Source: Daphnia carinata
Taxonomy: Eukaryota
Assembly: GCF_022539665.2 (NCBI RefSeq)
Contig: NC_081333.1
Location: 3,844,001 to 3,908,000 of the forward strand
DNA: 64,000 nt
Direction of reading: 5' to 3'
Below are positions 4,585-46,264 of the stretch, piece after piece. Within the stretch, counting starts at the first letter, position 1. The number at the start of each line of letters is the position of its first letter. The notes under the pieces are model-generated. The model was not told the DNA's origin. It did no database searches and saw nothing but the letters and a program-made list of their open reading frames with translations. Both the position numbers and the translations under genes were made by a program.

Positions 4585-6133
4585 TCACCAGGCAGTAGAT
4601 TCACGATAGTCGACTGCGGATGCGAGTGGATGAGTGGCGCTGGAAGACGCGATGGGTTGCGATGCTTTGGCCTCGCTGCGGATGACTTGATCCATAAAGG
4701 AGATGTAAGTGATGGCCAGACGGAGGGTCTCGATCCTGGAGAGTCGTTTCTCGTAGGCGAACGTCGGCACTTTTCGCCGCAATTTATCGAAGGCCTCGTT
4801 CAGGTTGAACATGCGACGCCGTTCGCGGATGTTGGCCGCACGACGCTGCGCCACCGTCGCCACCCGTTTCCGCTTTTTCGACGACGCCGACAGCCGGCAA
4901 GGTCTCATTCCCCTTTTTTATTTTTTTTTATTTTTTTTTTTTTTTTAGTTGTGTGAATATAAGAAATGTTTTTAAAAATCGGCTAAGAGCTGCGACAGAT
5001 TTAAAGTCTATTTTAACTGCGTGGATTTGGGTTTAAAAGCAAATGGGGATCAACGTAGTTGCTGATTAAATAGACAGACGTTCGAGCGTTGCCAATTCTC
5101 CCACGAAGTTTTGCTTTTTCTCGGTGTTTTTGTCTGTTTGTTTGCCTTTTAAACTGTTGTGTGTTGGCCACACAATTTCTTTTTATTGTACATAACAGTC
5201 GACCATCTCAAGTAAATAGCTCTCGACTAAGCGGATCAAAAGCTTTTTGCCTCCCTCCATCTATACGTTCGTTTTAGATGTGTGTGTTGTTGTTTTGTTT
5301 GTTTGTTTGTTTTTTTTTTTTATAAGATGGGGAAAGGCTTTAGTTTAGCCGTGTAAAGGAGGGCGGCTCAACAATGTCAGATTTTTTTTTTTTTTTTTTA
5401 ATATACTTATTTGTCTGTGGAAATTGAATAGAATTCGTCCGGAGGTCTCAACCCAACTTAATCAATTAACGCGACCCAACAAACTTCCATCAGTCAATCG
5501 TGTGTTTATTCTTCGCCGCCCTTTTCCTTTTGCACGGCCAGCTTTGCCGATATCGATCACCATTCAATTCGCATCGGCCTTACGCAATCTTTATCTGCTA
5601 GCCCACCAACCGGAAGTTAAATTGAGGAGCTTGGGGTTTTTCTTTTAAAAAATATTTGAAGGAACTATTTTAAAAATTTTTTTTTTTTAAGGTTTCAACT
5701 GATAGATGAAAGAGCTTTTATCCATCGTCATTGAAGCTAATACTCTTCCATTTTACTTCGTGTGCGAAGATGATTCTCTTCAGATTGATGATGACGACCT
5801 TGCGTCCAAATGTTTACGCTGACCCAACTAAAGCAAAACAACTCGTTCCATTTTCATTCACGTCGTTTCGACAGAGACGAGTTCTTGCGCCCCAAATAAT
5901 CAAACCAAAAGCACTGATGAAATCCCCCCTCTTTTTTTCATAGGCTACAAAAAAAAGGAGAACATTTTTATTTATTAATTTTTTTTTATGAATTCTCCGG
6001 ATTTTCACGTTGCCGCTCAAAGCTGTGCGTCTTTTGAGGAAGAAGTTTAACATTTGCGCAGCTTTAATAATCTTAACGGCGAAGCCCTTTTCATTTTATT
6101 GTTCATTAGTTTTATGCAAGAAAAAGGGGATCG

Positions 6134-15545: not shown

Positions 15546-16721
15546 ATGGCTGAAGAAAGGCTCACATTTACAGAGGAATTGCACATTCCAACACCTTGGG
15601 GATATCTTGCAGGTAATTGTGAAATAACTTTCTTGAGCGTTAAGATTGTTTAAAAAAAGAATACATTGTTTGTTGCTAATGAAACCTCTAGATTAAATTA
15701 TCAATTATTTGTATCTGCAAAAACAAAGCTAAGGTATGGGGCCCCGACAATGGCGTTCCAGTCTTGGCTCTTCATGGATGGCAAGATAATGCTGGATCTT
15801 TTGACACACTTGCTCCTCTGTTGCCTGCCAATATACGGCTGGTGTGCCTAGAGTTCTGTGGTAGGTACAAAAAAGTACTAATGTGCTTAAAAATTCTTGT
15901 CTTGATTGTTTATGTCAACACTACAGGGCATGGTCTCTCATCACACTATCCAACAGGAATGTTCCTGAACTACTATGATCATGTTTACCATGTCAAATTG
16001 GTGATTGACTTCTTTAAGTGGAAAAAGGTGTCAATCTTGGCCCACAGGTTGGCTGAAATTAAAAAAATATTAAAAATCACTTACAGTTCAATCTTCATAT
16101 ATTCTATTTCATAGCATGGGGGCAATTACTGCCATCTTCTTTGTATCCATGTACCCAGAGTTAGTGGATAAGTTTATCAGCCTCGATGCAGTTAAACAAC
16201 TTTCATCGTCTGCCGAATACTTACCAGCTCGTATGAAGAGTATTTTAAACCATTTCCAAGAAGTGTGTCAAAGACTTGAGCAAGGACCGCTATCGACTGT
16301 GTCATACGAGGAGGCTCGCGACAGAATCGTTAAAAATTACGGTGGATCAATTGACGAGAAAGATGCTGACGTCCTCCTTATTCGCGGCTTGCGTAAAGTT
16401 AAAGAGGATAGCGATGAATACGAGTTCACTCGCGATTTGCGTTCCACCATTCGTCCTTATATTTTCAATGACTTTACCACCGAACAGCTCAAAGCCGTGG
16501 CACGAGGTATCGTCTGTCCATTTTTGCTTATTAAAGCAAAAAACACCTCCGTGTTTGAACCAAAAGAACTGTACCGTGAGTTTTACGACCTTTACCGCGA
16601 TGCGAGCGAAGATTTTCGTTACGTTGAAGTAGATGGTAAACATCATGTCCATCTATCTCACCCAGAGTTAGTTGCGCCCATCATTATTAATTTTCTATTT
16701 CCAACAAAATCTAAACTATGA
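15546..16721 (+). CDS. Serine hydrolase-like (kraken/SERHL) alpha/beta hydrolase, copy 1; ends in SKL
   Basis: IPTPWGYLA, WGPDNGVPVLALHGWQDNAGSF, nucleophile AHS|MG (Ser codon split by an intron), VDGKHHVHL; 4 coding exons. Confidence 0.9.
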
Positions 16722-17327
16722 TTAGTGTTATAAATAAGGAAAACTGAAACGTAAAAAGGAACTAGTTTATTTAATACAGGTGATTGTATCTATTGCGCGT
16801 CTTTACAATTCAACTTTCGAGAAGTATTTATTTTCTTAAACTAAAAGAAAACTTTTCATTTTATGTATTATTTTTTATTGTTATTTTATTGCGATCATGC
16901 AAGCGTAAATTGTTGGATTTCACGTAGATTCTGGTTGTGAAGCAACTAGTAGTGTATTCACTCCAGTTGGGCAACTACATAAACAGAGACGTCTTCTTTT
17001 CAAAACCCTAAAAAATTTAACAAATGGAAAGGATTTTTGTTTCCTTTACAAACCAATGATACCGTTCGCGATTGCTATACTTCGTGGTAAAAATGTTTTA
17101 ATTGAAATTTCCTTCAAGAATTTAAAAAATCCCTCTATTCCTAACTGGAAAATTGGCAATTATTTGGTTGTTCAGTTTGCAGCTCAGTCATTTTGAGATA
17201 AGCAGACGAATGTTGATCAAATGCTAATCTTTCATGATGAAACAACAAATGCAAGCAATAGCCTGAACTTAAAAAGCCATTTTTCTTATTAGTTTCTTTT
17301 AATTTCCATGCAGTGTGAAAAATAACA

Positions 17328-18544
17328 ATGAAGTCAGTAAAGGTTAACCACCTTCAGTACAAAGATCTCCAAATACCTGTTCCATGGGGTTTTTTGGCAG
17401 GTAAAATAGTTCAACCTTGTTAACATTTTTCCTACTTACTTTTACTGTTCGATTCCTGTTTGTTTCAATCATTGCCCCTGTCGAACTATACTTAATGTAT
17501 TCTGGTGATACAGCTAAGGTATGGGGACCTGATGATGGTCTACCTGTTTTGGCTCTCCATGGATGGCAGGATAATGCAGGATCCTTTGACACACTAGTTC
17601 ATCTGCTGCCTGAGAATACATGTTTGGTGTGTCTTGAATTTTGTGGTAATCAACCAGTTTTTTTTTCTAAATATCTTTTTGCCAATATTTCCCTAATTTT
17701 TCCATTATTGTACTGTCTCATGTAGGTCATGGCTGTTCCTCGCATTACCATCCTGGAATGTTTTTGTCCCTGTATGACCATATCTATCATGTTAAATTGG
17801 TGATTGATTTTTTTCAATGGGAAAAAATTACCCTTATGGGCCACAGGTAATTTTGTATGATCTTTGGTTACAGACTGGCTTGTAACAGCTATATTTCTGA
17901 TTTTCAGTATGGGAGGTCAAATAGCATTGTTCGTTGCCTCCATATTTCCCGACAAAATTCACAAACTAATCAGTTTGGATGCCATTAAACTTCGATCTTC
18001 TTTACCAGACAGTTTTACCAGTGATATGAAAGCAGTGATAAACGATTTTCAGAGTATTGTTAGAAAAATTGAAAATGTTTCGCGGAAACCTTCCGTCACG
18101 ACATACAATCAGGCGCGTGAGAAACTGGTAAAAAATTATTCTGGATCTGTTGAAGCTGAACACACCGACATCCTTCTTGCCCGCAGTTTGCGAAAGACGG
18201 GCGAAGACGAGTATGTATATACTAGAGACCTGCGCACTGTTATCCGTCCTTTCCTTTTCAACGATTTTACAACCGAAAAGCTCAAAGAAATCGCCAAAGG
18301 AATCAAATGTCCTTTCTTGTTAATCAAAGCGAAATATTCGATTACTTCCGTATCTTCGGAACGAATTGAATTACATCAAGAATTCCTCGATATCTATCGC
18401 AATGCTAGTTCAGATTTCCATTTTGTTGAGGTTAATGGTACCCATCATGTCCATCTAACTCATCCTGAAATGGTCGCACCATACATTTGCAATTTCCTTC
18501 GTAAAAATGTAGAGCAATCAAAAGACGCACACCAAGATCCATAA
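17328..18544 (+). CDS. Serine hydrolase-like (kraken/SERHL) alpha/beta hydrolase, copy 2; no C-terminal SKL
   Basis: IPVPWGFLA, ALHGWQDNAGSF, GHS|MGG, VNGTHHVHL; same intron positions as copy 1. Confidence 0.9.
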
Positions 18545-18991
18545 TAATTTTCCTAGGGAAAAAGGGTGGGAACGTTGTGGTTAATTGTCACCGGAAAAAA
18601 ATACAAAACCACAAACCATTGTTTTTGAACATAGTTTTTAAAAAATTACTAATTTCTAATTTATTACTATAGTGTTAACTGTTTTTGCCTGATTACGCTT
18701 ACGTAAATGTTCGTTTGTTATATCTGCCTGTTTATGTAAACCTGTAAAAGACAAAGTCTCAGTCCCATATCGATTCTTTTATCGATATGACGATTTTTCA
18801 GTTATTTTTTATGCCGTCTGTATTTTCCACCGACCAAACGTTAGTACGTAATCTATTTGATCTCTGAAAGCATCAATGTAAATAGGACCAAAGGGCAAAA
18901 AAAAATATGAGGAAGTGAATAGAGTATACATGTTGTGTTGAACGCAGTCTTTATCTTGGAACGAGTCAGTGAATGAATGAATGTTGTTGGA

Positions 18992-20129
18992 ATGAAATCA
19001 ATTACAGCTGCCCTAGTGAAAAGCCAACAGTTAGAATTCAAATGCGACGTACAAATTCCGGTTCCATGGGGACATATGTCAGGTATGGAATTTAAATGTG
19101 ATATTTTTTTTAAAATGTGGTTGTCTAAGCTGTTATAATACCTTATGGTAATAGCAAAAGTCTGGGGACCTGACCATGGAATACCTGTTCTAGCGGTTCA
19201 TGGACTGATGGACAATGCAGGATCATATGACACATTAGCTCCTCTTTTACCTGCAAACATACATCTTGTTTGCCTTGAACTTTGTGGTATTTTAATTTTT
19301 AAATTACTATCAATTGTACCAGTTAATAAAACAGCTACATGTTACAGGACATGGATACTCATCTTCATATCCGCCTGGAGTTGTCCTTCATTATTTTGAC
19401 CATGCCTATCACGTTAAGCTTGTAGTCGATTACTTTAAATGGGATAAAGTGGTCTTACTTGGTCATAGGTAAATTGAACAAACATTTAGACTAACATCAT
19501 ATATTGCAATGAGTTTTGTTTTGTTTAGCATTGGAGCCATCACACTTTTTCTGTTTGCATCCCTATTTCCCGAAAATGTCAGTAGGATGATCAGCTTGGA
19601 TTTAGTCAAACCGTTCTCAGTATCTGTGAAAAAACTTCCTGTTATCATGAGAGGCATCATAACACAAATGCAAGGATTTTCAGAAGTTGGACCGCCACTA
19701 ACAGTACAATATAAAGAGGCGCGTCAAAGCATCGTCGATAATTACAAGGGGTCAGTTGACGAGAAGGCTGCCGACATTCTTTTAGTTCGTAGCTTGAAAA
19801 AGAAGGCTGATGCTGAAGATGCTTACGAATTGCCAAACGATTTACGCATACTAGTCCGAACACTCACTCTCTCCGAGGAACAAATCAAAGTGTTGGTTAC
19901 AAACATCCGTTGCCCTTTACTCATCATTCGAGCTACTAACGGGCTAAAGAATTTTACCGAGGACGTCTTAAAAGAATATCTCAACATTTATAAATCATCC
20001 AGCGCTGATTTCCGAATTGTCAATGTAGCCGGAAGTCATCATGTTCACCTTACCCATCCTGAGCGAGTTGCTCCCCATATCCGTGAATTTCTACTACCTC
20101 TTACAAGTCTTCGTACTAGCAAACTCTAA
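18992..20129 (+). CDS. Serine hydrolase-like (kraken/SERHL) alpha/beta hydrolase, copy 3; ends in SKL (alternative in-frame ATG at 18977)
   Basis: IPVPWGHMS, AVHGLMDNAGSY, GHS|IGA, VAGSHHVHL; same intron positions as copies 1 and 2. Confidence 0.9.
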
Positions 20130-44032: not shown

Positions 44033-46264
44033 TTATATCCGTCCATTAATTTCTTGATTAGATGGAGATCCTCCTTGGTTAATGTAATGCATGGGCCACA
44101 TACTGTCGTCACAAGCAGTATTGTTCGATGTGTCGGGAGGATGTGAAATTGATGTTGAGGACAAGAAATCGTTGGCCTCATTAAAAAAAAATTCGTAATT
44201 TTCATCTACTGCTATTGATGAGAACGACGAGGCTTCAAAGCCATCCTCCATCTATATTCATTACAGAAGTTGACTTAACCAGTCCAACATTGCTTTTTAA
44301 ACTTAATAAGATCTTTTTTTAGCTTACCGAAGAGGATGACCCCGAGGATGAATTTACTTGCACTTGAGGGTTCGAGACTTCATTAAAATATTCTTCCTCA
44401 CTGTAGGTGAAACGTTAAAATCATACTTTTTCTAAATTATCATTGTAAATAATTTTACTTACTGTATACGAGCGTTATTCAAGATAAATCCCATAACTAA
44501 CTTGTTAGTTGCACTGTCACGGAAGTAAACAAATTCACCTCTAGACTTAACATAGACAATTGTTCCCTGATGTTTCGCCTTTAAAGGGTAAGATATGTAA
44601 TTTTCGCGGCCGTTGTATAACCCTGCCAATAGCAAATTCAAAATTCATGTTGGTTAATGTAGGACATGTGTTGAATCATATTCCCTAGCCTTACAGTTAA
44701 ATTGTGCCTGTGACACAATTGGTAATGCATCTTCGCGAATGAAGTCGTGGGCCGATTTATTTATAACTTCATCACAGGTATAACCCGCTACCATTGTTAT
44801 CCTGTTTAATGTAGTCAAGAATTTAATGTACACTTAAAATCTAACTTCCAAGCACTAAACTTACCTTTTATCGGCTTGAATGATTTTCCCATCTAAGGAG
44901 TGTAGCGTCATATACTGATAGTAAGTATAGATGTGAATAAATGACGCCAATCTGGGCCAAGAAGATTTCGTAGACAACATCAACCTTTGCTTGTCTGGCT
45001 GATTACTTTTCTCCCGAGTTGTTCGGATGCATGGGCGAATATACCCGGTCAAGAAAACCATTTTATATTCCGAAACTGTTTTCAGCCGATGACGAATCGG
45101 CTCTGTTACGCGACATTCGGGGAAACTAAAATCCTTCCTGTCCGTCGTAGAACCGTCGCTCGACCGTCTCAATAAGAAAGTGCGCACAACTTCTGCATAA
45201 TCTTCCGGATGAACTAACTCTGACAAGTTCCGTCCGATCATGTTTATCTGTTGTGAGTTTATGACAAGTTGATTTAACAGGAAAAGAAAAAAATTATCTG
45301 GGTTAGGGTAGTACTCGATCAAAACCCAATGTAGACTCAACATCAGCCGAAACCCAAGTGATGTCAATTATGTTTTCGTCAGTTGTAGAGTATGAAAGGC
45401 CAAGGTGAAGGTTAGGTGGCGTTCCGTTCTGCATATAATCTATTGAATATTGCTTAAAAAATAAGTTGTCAATACATCAGAAAATTTTTATAATTTTTTT
45501 AAGTTCTCTAACCACTTGCTTTATTGCTGGATAAACCATTGGCTGTTGTAATTCCCTGTGAGCTTCACAACGAGCTTCAAAAACTCGTTCGGAAAGTAAA
45601 TTTAACTGCGTTTGAAGCTCGTCGTAAAAACCTGTATAAGTTATTTATGAACATGTAAAGAAATCATTGCTACTGTGCATAGGAAAGATGTGATACTTAG
45701 CGGTCTCTCCGTTGGGGATTTTCCATCAGTGTAAAATTGGATTATACTACGTGGTATTTCAGATAGGCAGGCCCGTGTTAGACGAGCTCTGGTGAGCTCT
45801 TGCAAGTGAATACTTTCGTTTTCTTGTCCCATCACTAGAGACGCCATATCTTTAATGAGTGCACTGATTTCATCTTTACGGTCCTTTTCAGTCTGATTCT
45901 TATTATGTTTTTTTTCGGCCAACCTTTTTTGATAGATAAATGCGATTACAAAGAGAGCACAAACTCCCCCATCGTTTACAGCATACCTGGATACCGAGTC
46001 ATCTACTGTCACAGGAATAGGGCAGATGTGTTTTTCCAAGTCTGTAGTTCCCCCTTTGGGTCCTAAACGACGAATTTGCCTGCAGGATCGACAAACAGCA
46101 TAGCCACGGGGTGACGAAGTGTCAGTAACGTTTTCCTCATTTATCGTAACAACACGTAAGAATTTTTGCCAGGCTTTTTTTGATGTTTCTTTCTCCTCCA
46201 CGAGAACGTAAGAACCATTGTTCAAATTACACTGAATGTGAGTGACGTCGTAAGTGGTATTCAT
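44033..46264 (-). CDS. BED zinc finger + bHLH + PAS-A + PAS-B protein; divergent Methoprene-tolerant (Met)-like, about 9 coding exons
   Basis: BED-like AWQKF...AVCRSC...GGTTDLEKHIC; bHLH NQTEKDRKDEISALIKDMASLV; PAS-A ITWVSADVESTLGFDR|INMIGRNLSELVHPEDY; PAS-B YMTLHSLDGKIIQADKR|ITMVAGYTCDEV...AHDFIREDA...SYPLK...VYVKSRG...FILNNARI. Exons join in frame through GT-AG introns. Confidence 0.78.

Follow-up and report, generated by a model that had tools for sequence, protein, structure and literature searches.

The juvenoid response of Daphnia has so far been explained by one receptor, Met/SRC; a survey from 2026 infers that Met is single-copy in crustaceans, subject to genomic checks (available text of PMC12897451). 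New transcription factors are known to arise by capture of transposase parts (10.1101/2020.05.07.082677; PMC10027918; PMC9296551; available portions), and in vertebrates host-transposase fusions arise by splicing (10.1101/2020.05.07.082677; PMC9296551; same portions). BED domains, among the modules so captured, read DNA through their C-terminal helix, which in the CCHC finger of Hermes reads the major groove (PMC10368747, section 7).

The gene described here lies in a window of 64,000 nt of Daphnia carinata (NC_081333.1, 3,844,001 to 3,908,000, forward strand). Converging tests, each weak by itself, give good support to a hAT-type BED finger predicted in its first exon, and the PAS part that follows is most likely a fast-evolving Met paralog. 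Like Met/Gce, Daphnia Met (BAM83855.1, BAM83853.1) included, the predicted protein has the order bHLH, PAS-A, PAS-B, Met-type PAS-B residues and its top profile scores with that family; unlike them it has a BED finger, a degenerate basic region and helix 2, a long linker ahead of PAS-A, and Leu for a pocket Cys. As in KRABINER and other KRAB fusions, plant BED-NLR proteins and BED-WRKY/GRAS proteins, a transposase-type DNA-binding exon is joined to a host regulator, but here the regulator is a bHLH-PAS receptor of the ligand type, which had a DNA-binding domain to begin with. Transposase capture and crustacean Met duplicates are known; the new element is the BED finger on a bHLH-PAS protein, a combination for which the initial annotation knew no canonical example. 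We found no description of it, or of this Daphnia gene, in the open literature, subscription journals and bioRxiv supplements being outside the search, and the term bHLH is absent from the main text, so far as available, of two surveys of BED- and transposon-derived transcription factors (PMC10027918, PMC9296551).

Nine GT-AG exons on the minus strand, with introns of 60-76 nt, run from 46264 to 44033 of the window (Table 1), and the BED and PAS-B motifs quoted in the initial annotation are found there. The CDS has 1,704 nt, and its conceptual splice product (567 aa) matches letter for letter XP_057372656.1 (P0001), whose only database name is 'uncharacterized protein LOC130693515'. The finger fills exon 1 and stops at a phase-2 intron, the pattern expected under exon capture; this in-frame intron of 63 nt parts BED from bHLH. 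The gene stands tail to tail with a BCL7-like gene and head to head with a DEAH helicase gene; the head-to-head arrangement is found also at the related locus L001. No transposase body or terminal repeats occur around the gene in the window, and no donor element turned up.

Table 1. Features of the BED-PAS gene, by position in the window
Feature	Position	Strand	Remarks
Exon 1, aa 1-92; start codon and entire BED finger, phase-2 donor at end	45987..46264	-	Intron position also in L003
CCHC BED zinc finger, aa 7-82	46019..46246	-	Hermes-like, including N-terminal extension
Intron 1, 63 nt, in frame, without stops in this window	45924..45986	-	Missing from spliced proteins; stops in L001; read as intron in L003
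Exon 2, aa 93-168; degenerate bHLH, aa 97-146	45697..45923	-	E105 and R108 retained; K109 and E135 replace Met-invariant Arg and Lys
Exon 3, aa 169-208; part of long HLH-to-PAS-A linker	45513..45631	-	Helical in low-confidence model; purifying selection, dN/dS about 0.25
Exon 4, aa 209-254; PAS-A start	45315..45452	-	Pfam and Met profile
Exon 5, aa 255-381; remaining PAS-A and PAS-B start; pocket Y366, T368, I376	44865..45247	-	
Exon 6, aa 382-417; PAS-B; pocket V394, V411	44695..44801	-	
Exon 7, aa 418-470; PAS-B; pocket L431, S444, L465	44463..44622	-	Met has an invariant Cys at L465
Exon 8, aa 471-495; PAS-B end and Ser-rich linker	44328..44400	-	
Exon 9, aa 496-567 and stop; acidic Ser-rich tail	44033..44251	-	Weakly conserved; candidate activation region

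The first open reading frame was searched among longer proteins and gave five full-length matches in 457 candidates, all from Daphnia or clustered with Daphnia proteins: the D. carinata protein, RefSeq models from D. pulex and from D. pulicaria, each with three isoforms, and a pair of Logan proteins that cluster with D. magna proteins, one of the latter machine-labelled 'putative Gce'. Four intron-free Logan proteins (553-608 aa, from contigs of 1,970-2,769 nt) are D. magna-like, not D. carinata, and contain no intron-coded residues. Since these contigs lack the introns and three of the four are shorter than the 2,232-nt genomic span, they are best read as assemblies of spliced RNA, on which finger and PAS-B would be joined in one frame in D. 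magna-like relatives. The initial annotation had placed BED and bHLH-PAS in one spliced frame and proposed a search for orthologs in other cladocerans; the contigs of these close relatives speak against separate transcripts, and orthologs were found in D. magna, D. pulex and D. pulicaria.

Crude Nei-Gojobori counts against locus L003 (442 codons) gave an overall dN/dS of 0.15, with 0.07 for BED (synonymous sites near saturation), 0.13 for bHLH, 0.25 for the linker, 0.15 for PAS-A and 0.18 for PAS-B; by these counts every domain is under purifying selection. Identity between D. carinata and D. pulicaria is about 67% for the paralog and 94.5% for ordinary Met, so that the gene is conserved yet fast-evolving. 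An annotation artefact, in which a transposon remnant lies beside a decaying PAS gene, is largely refuted and hardly credible: although locus L001 is broken, the contigs are full-length and intron-free, dN/dS is far below 1, exon structure and neighbour recur in other loci, and the surroundings are free of transposase body and terminal repeats.

The damage at L001 lies at 1072-1460, a degenerate copy in which the second BED Cys is read as Tyr, the intron-1 donor is without GT and the bHLH has a frameshift; it may be a pseudogene, a disrupted allele or the result of an error in the sequence. The D. magna cluster contains two types (P0006/P0002/P0008 and P0009/P0003/P0011) that are 14-21% apart in the linker and PAS domains and only 2-9% apart in BED and bHLH. 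One member, P0011, has a finger that belongs to one type and PAS domains that belong to the other, a mixture that suggests a tandem duplicate with gene conversion or a chimeric assembly.

Pfam returned only part of what the initial annotation expected of the spliced protein: PAS (35.2 bits) and PAS_11 (49.2 bits) were above cut-off, whereas neither zf-BED nor HLH matched P0001 at E<=1. On relatives, zf-BED scored 13.7-15.9 bits against a cut-off of 20.6, the best ortholog reaching E 0.3 (one of three members). The call of a BED-type N-terminus held up nonetheless, through profile and fold links to BED domains and the presence of all six key residues. These residues, the zinc ligands C58, C61, H79 and C81 together with W32 and F35, do not vary across the 12 N-terminal domains aligned, and the Gly-rich loop ahead of the recognition helix is kept in all 12 relatives. 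The arrangement C-x2-C-x17-H-x-C is like that of the Hermes BED domain (C51, C54, H71 and C73; PDB 8EB5). Unlike the fingers of Hermes and ZBED1/2, to which it is about 19% identical, the paralog finger is a single copy with its own Gly-rich loop, and the protein is without transposase core or hAT dimerisation domain, Pfam matches to either being absent from P0001-P0005.

With a three-row profile of exon 1, a search of 1.84 billion proteins gave 15 matches at E<=0.001. Two are plainly false; the others are one ortholog, P0147, P0149, P0152, a longer relative without a name and eight short proteins that resemble exon 1. P0147 has six BED repeats (Pfam zf-BED, 53 bits) and matches the profile at E 1.5e-12; P0149 and P0152, which match at E 2e-5 and 1e-4, are hAT proteins that combine a hAT dimerisation domain with three BED repeats each. 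P0147 is an unnamed protein that carries C2H2 fingers besides its repeats, and one of the two hAT-type proteins, whose three repeats are in tandem, is named for the oomycete Aphanomyces. In the reverse direction, a profile of those BED repeats scored 28.5 bits on aa 14-82 of P0001, while among 175 proteins no Met protein exceeded 5 bits; this set was picked by the exon 1 profile search and is not independent of it.

Cluster and fold searches lean the same way. The top three Atlas clusters for aa 1-90 are zf-BED, with scores of 0.86-0.87 (taken as a lead only). For a model of aa 1-92 (pLDDT 52.7), Foldseek ranks 1, 2, 3 and 5 are BED domains at E>=0.12, and a fold search placed the Hermes BED domain first among 48,161 chains, aligned over aa 5-81 (Z 5.0, rmsd 3.1, 68 residues aligned); the best non-BED chain had Z 2.7, and Z 5.0 sits below the tool's caution level of 8. 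The full-length model, at pLDDT 31, was left out of the fold search. A 12-row profile searched against the PDB likewise ranked the Hermes BED domain first (E 0.17), and searches of the PDB with the single sequence and the three-row profile gave only weak ZBED2 matches amid chance matches.

Twelve short relatives resemble exon 1. Arg is the last residue of eight, Arg-Tyr closes one, and in the other three an unrelated tail comes after the Arg; since P0014, in the D. pulicaria cluster, likewise terminates in Arg, they resemble gene calls on an unspliced exon 1 and may be linked to PAS exons. Their identity to the D. carinata finger is 35-62%, so the family likely reaches more distant water fleas, beyond the four named Daphnia species. 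In JGI annotation, the exon-1 fragments P0015, P0019 and P0023 are labelled 'transcription elongation factor Elf1', the finger being misannotated.

A bHLH does follow the finger in frame, as the initial annotation stated, but it is degenerate at DNA-contacting positions, a feature that the annotation had missed. The Met-bHLH profile aligns to P0001 only at residues 99-123, basic region and helix 1, where it scores 11.1 bits (highest of 500 shuffles, 4.6); on the two pulex-group proteins it gives 2.3-2.4 bits. The second helix is placed solely by profile-profile alignment, in which hhalign finds a collinear match with Met from bHLH to PAS-B (probability 99.6). The basic region keeps the Glu and first Arg of E-x-x-R-R and the preceding Asn, three Met-invariant Arg residues are Lys, the last Arg among them, and the Met-invariant Lys that opens helix 2 is Glu; the net charge of the basic region is +1/+2 against +3 to +5 in 33 Met rows. 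In bHLH proteins, recognition of the central CG of CACGTG depends on the last Arg, and the helix-2 Lys holds the backbone. Reading of the Daphnia Met response element, CTCCACGTG (available text of PMC12818400), is probably weakened or altered in the paralog because these two residues are replaced. The domain may still read DNA, since E105 and R108 are kept and the bHLH is well conserved between Daphnia groups (72-75%, among the best conserved parts). The linker that leads from it to PAS-A, about 75 residues, is longer than that of Met.

The Met PAS-A and PAS-B profiles score 28 and 65 bits on the paralog, against less than 5 for shuffles. With a profile built from the orthologs, 85 of 90 proteins from the Met search beat the best non-Met solved chain, the non-Met comparators being mostly vertebrate PDB chains. 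Daphnia Met ranked second and fourth (70.8 and 67.9 bits) in two clusters to which the published Met proteins of D. pulex and D. magna belong. Ordinary Met is a separate gene, which in D. carinata lies on a different contig, and its PAS-B is 28-35% identical to that of the paralog in Daphnia. Among the 24 PAS-B columns that are conserved across 33 Met rows, all five paralogs retain 16. At the 11 PAS-B columns that separate Met from an unnamed outgroup protein, which we take to be ARNT-type by its motif, the paralog agrees with Met at eight and with the outgroup at none.

Five trees with AU tests were made from 23-41 of about 95 proteins each, none from Clock, SRC or cycle; the PAS-B tree left out Locusta and Cyprideis, whose sequence is missing there, and the trees drew on a single non-Met arthropod-type sequence. 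The paralog, on a very long stem, is sister to Daphnia Met in one tree (57/39) and stands beside an ostracod in another (81/77). A third joins it without support to the outgroup (45/72), a place inside Met not being rejected (p-AU 0.41), and yet another unites Daphnia Met with Artemia Met (95/96) and leaves the paralog outside. On these alignments the trees neither place the paralog inside Met nor reject that placement. The proposal of a Met paralog stands on its best profile scores and Met-diagnostic residues, whereas the expected grouping with the Met clade lacks firm support. Descent from a different bHLH-PAS gene, whether Clock, SRC, cycle or one of an extinct branch, with the likeness to Met due to convergence or shared ancestry, would suit the long stems, the unsettled trees with their single non-Met arthropod-type sequence, and a Met PAS-B profile score on the paralog (62-67 bits) that is no higher than on the ARNT-type outgroup (65.7). 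We consider it very improbable, for the ortholog profile gives 71 bits on Met and only 38.1 on BMAL1, 37 on HIF-2a and 14.7 on CLOCK, and the diagnostic residues run eight to none.

Other Met-like duplicates were seen under misleading database names, three in Darwinula (P0027, P0028, P0067), two in Artemia (P0102, P0106) and two in Macrobrachium (P0050, P0051), in conflict with the single-copy view of crustacean Met.

Pocket positions were mapped from the beetle sequence by our own numbering (V297, T272, V315 and C366 as published), with spacing consistent with PMC12897451 section 2.2.1 and PMC4498814, so far as their text is available. Seven of the eight residues of the juvenile hormone (JH) pocket match Met (Y366, T368, I376, V394, V411, L431 and S444). 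The eighth is Cys in all 88 Met rows with a residue at that position and Leu (L465) in all nine paralog rows, a change that the initial annotation had overlooked; in Gce, C366M abolishes JH III binding (available text of PMC4498814). V411 is Val as in insects, where Daphnia Met has Thr, and a Thr-to-Val substitution is reported to have made Daphnia Met respond more strongly to JH III (same text, citing the original).

These pocket residues bear on the possibility of a second juvenoid receptor, which would bind methyl farnesoate or a JH III-like compound, recruit SRC and act on a gene set chosen by the BED finger. The agreement of seven residues at so low a PAS-B identity and the JH III-favouring V411 argue for it, but the paralog has Leu for the Cys at a position where methionine abolishes JH III binding, and the pocket positions are buried, so the fold alone may conserve some of them. 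We judge this reading unlikely. Hormone binding may survive the Cys-to-Leu change, since Leu differs from methionine; taken together, the degenerate basic region and the lost Cys weigh against an ordinary methyl farnesoate sensor. A frankly speculative and doubtful extension is a hidden second juvenoid receptor in cladocerans, its DNA targets reset by the captured finger, with a network driven by methyl farnesoate or a related compound and seeded by old hAT transposon ends; if true, this network could feed environmental sex determination or inducible defences.

Inhibitory relatives, AhRR and HIF-3a/IPAS, are known among bHLH-PAS proteins and lose domains. The paralog may compete for a partner as they do, but neither of its PAS domains is lost and a DNA-binding finger has been added. 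As a brake on juvenoid signalling it would bind SRC or ordinary Met through HLH and PAS domains, read CACGTG poorly and raise the hormone threshold for males, while BED tethers it to chromatin or to a protein. The changed Met-invariant residues and reduced charge of the basic region fit this proposal, as does loss of the pocket Cys; Daphnia Met self-associates without hormone (available text of PMC5359607), and Met-Gce dimers form without JH (available text of PMC7953021). A pure decoy, however, needs neither the zinc ligands and Gly-rich loop kept throughout the 12 relatives nor seven of eight pocket residues, and we regard the brake as possible, if rather unlikely.

The most likely reading, which we hold tentatively, is a transcription factor aimed by its BED finger, likely paired with SRC, and with a changed or closed ligand pocket. 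A duplicated Met would have captured the first exon of a transposase by splicing, and DNA recognition would have passed in part to the finger while the invariant Arg of Met's basic region and the Lys of helix 2 were lost. The protein would pair with SRC, a partner presumably carried over from Met, through its HLH and PAS domains, and the finger would select DNA sites. The PAS-B cavity would be kept yet narrowed by the Cys-to-Leu change, so that the protein would probably answer to some other small lipid or need no ligand, and would not read methyl farnesoate in the manner of Met.

A second Met-like protein, apparently expressed but missed by standard domain scans, could modulate or redirect the action of the hormone that determines the sex of offspring, and juvenoid ecotoxicity assays that rest on Met/SRC alone could be affected. 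With this gene, transposase capture would reach a family of hormone receptors, and one could test directly whether a captured finger can replace the bHLH's own reading of DNA. Met signalling in Daphnia can be studied with existing reporter systems and CRISPR (available text of PMC12818400), so the paralog is testable now.

Upstream of the gene, a three-codon open reading frame lies on the minus strand at 46395-46384 of the window, where pulex-group genes start a longer N-terminal extension. Positions 46596-46335 of the window are 71% identical to 717-978 of L001, possibly a conserved promoter or 5' UTR common to the helicase gene. Elsewhere in the window, three or more tandem copies of an alpha/beta-hydrolase gene occupy 15692-20126 on the plus strand, and an exon of an ordinary bHLH gene, unconnected with the BED-PAS gene, lies at 4588-4917 on the minus strand (Pfam HLH, 70 bits).
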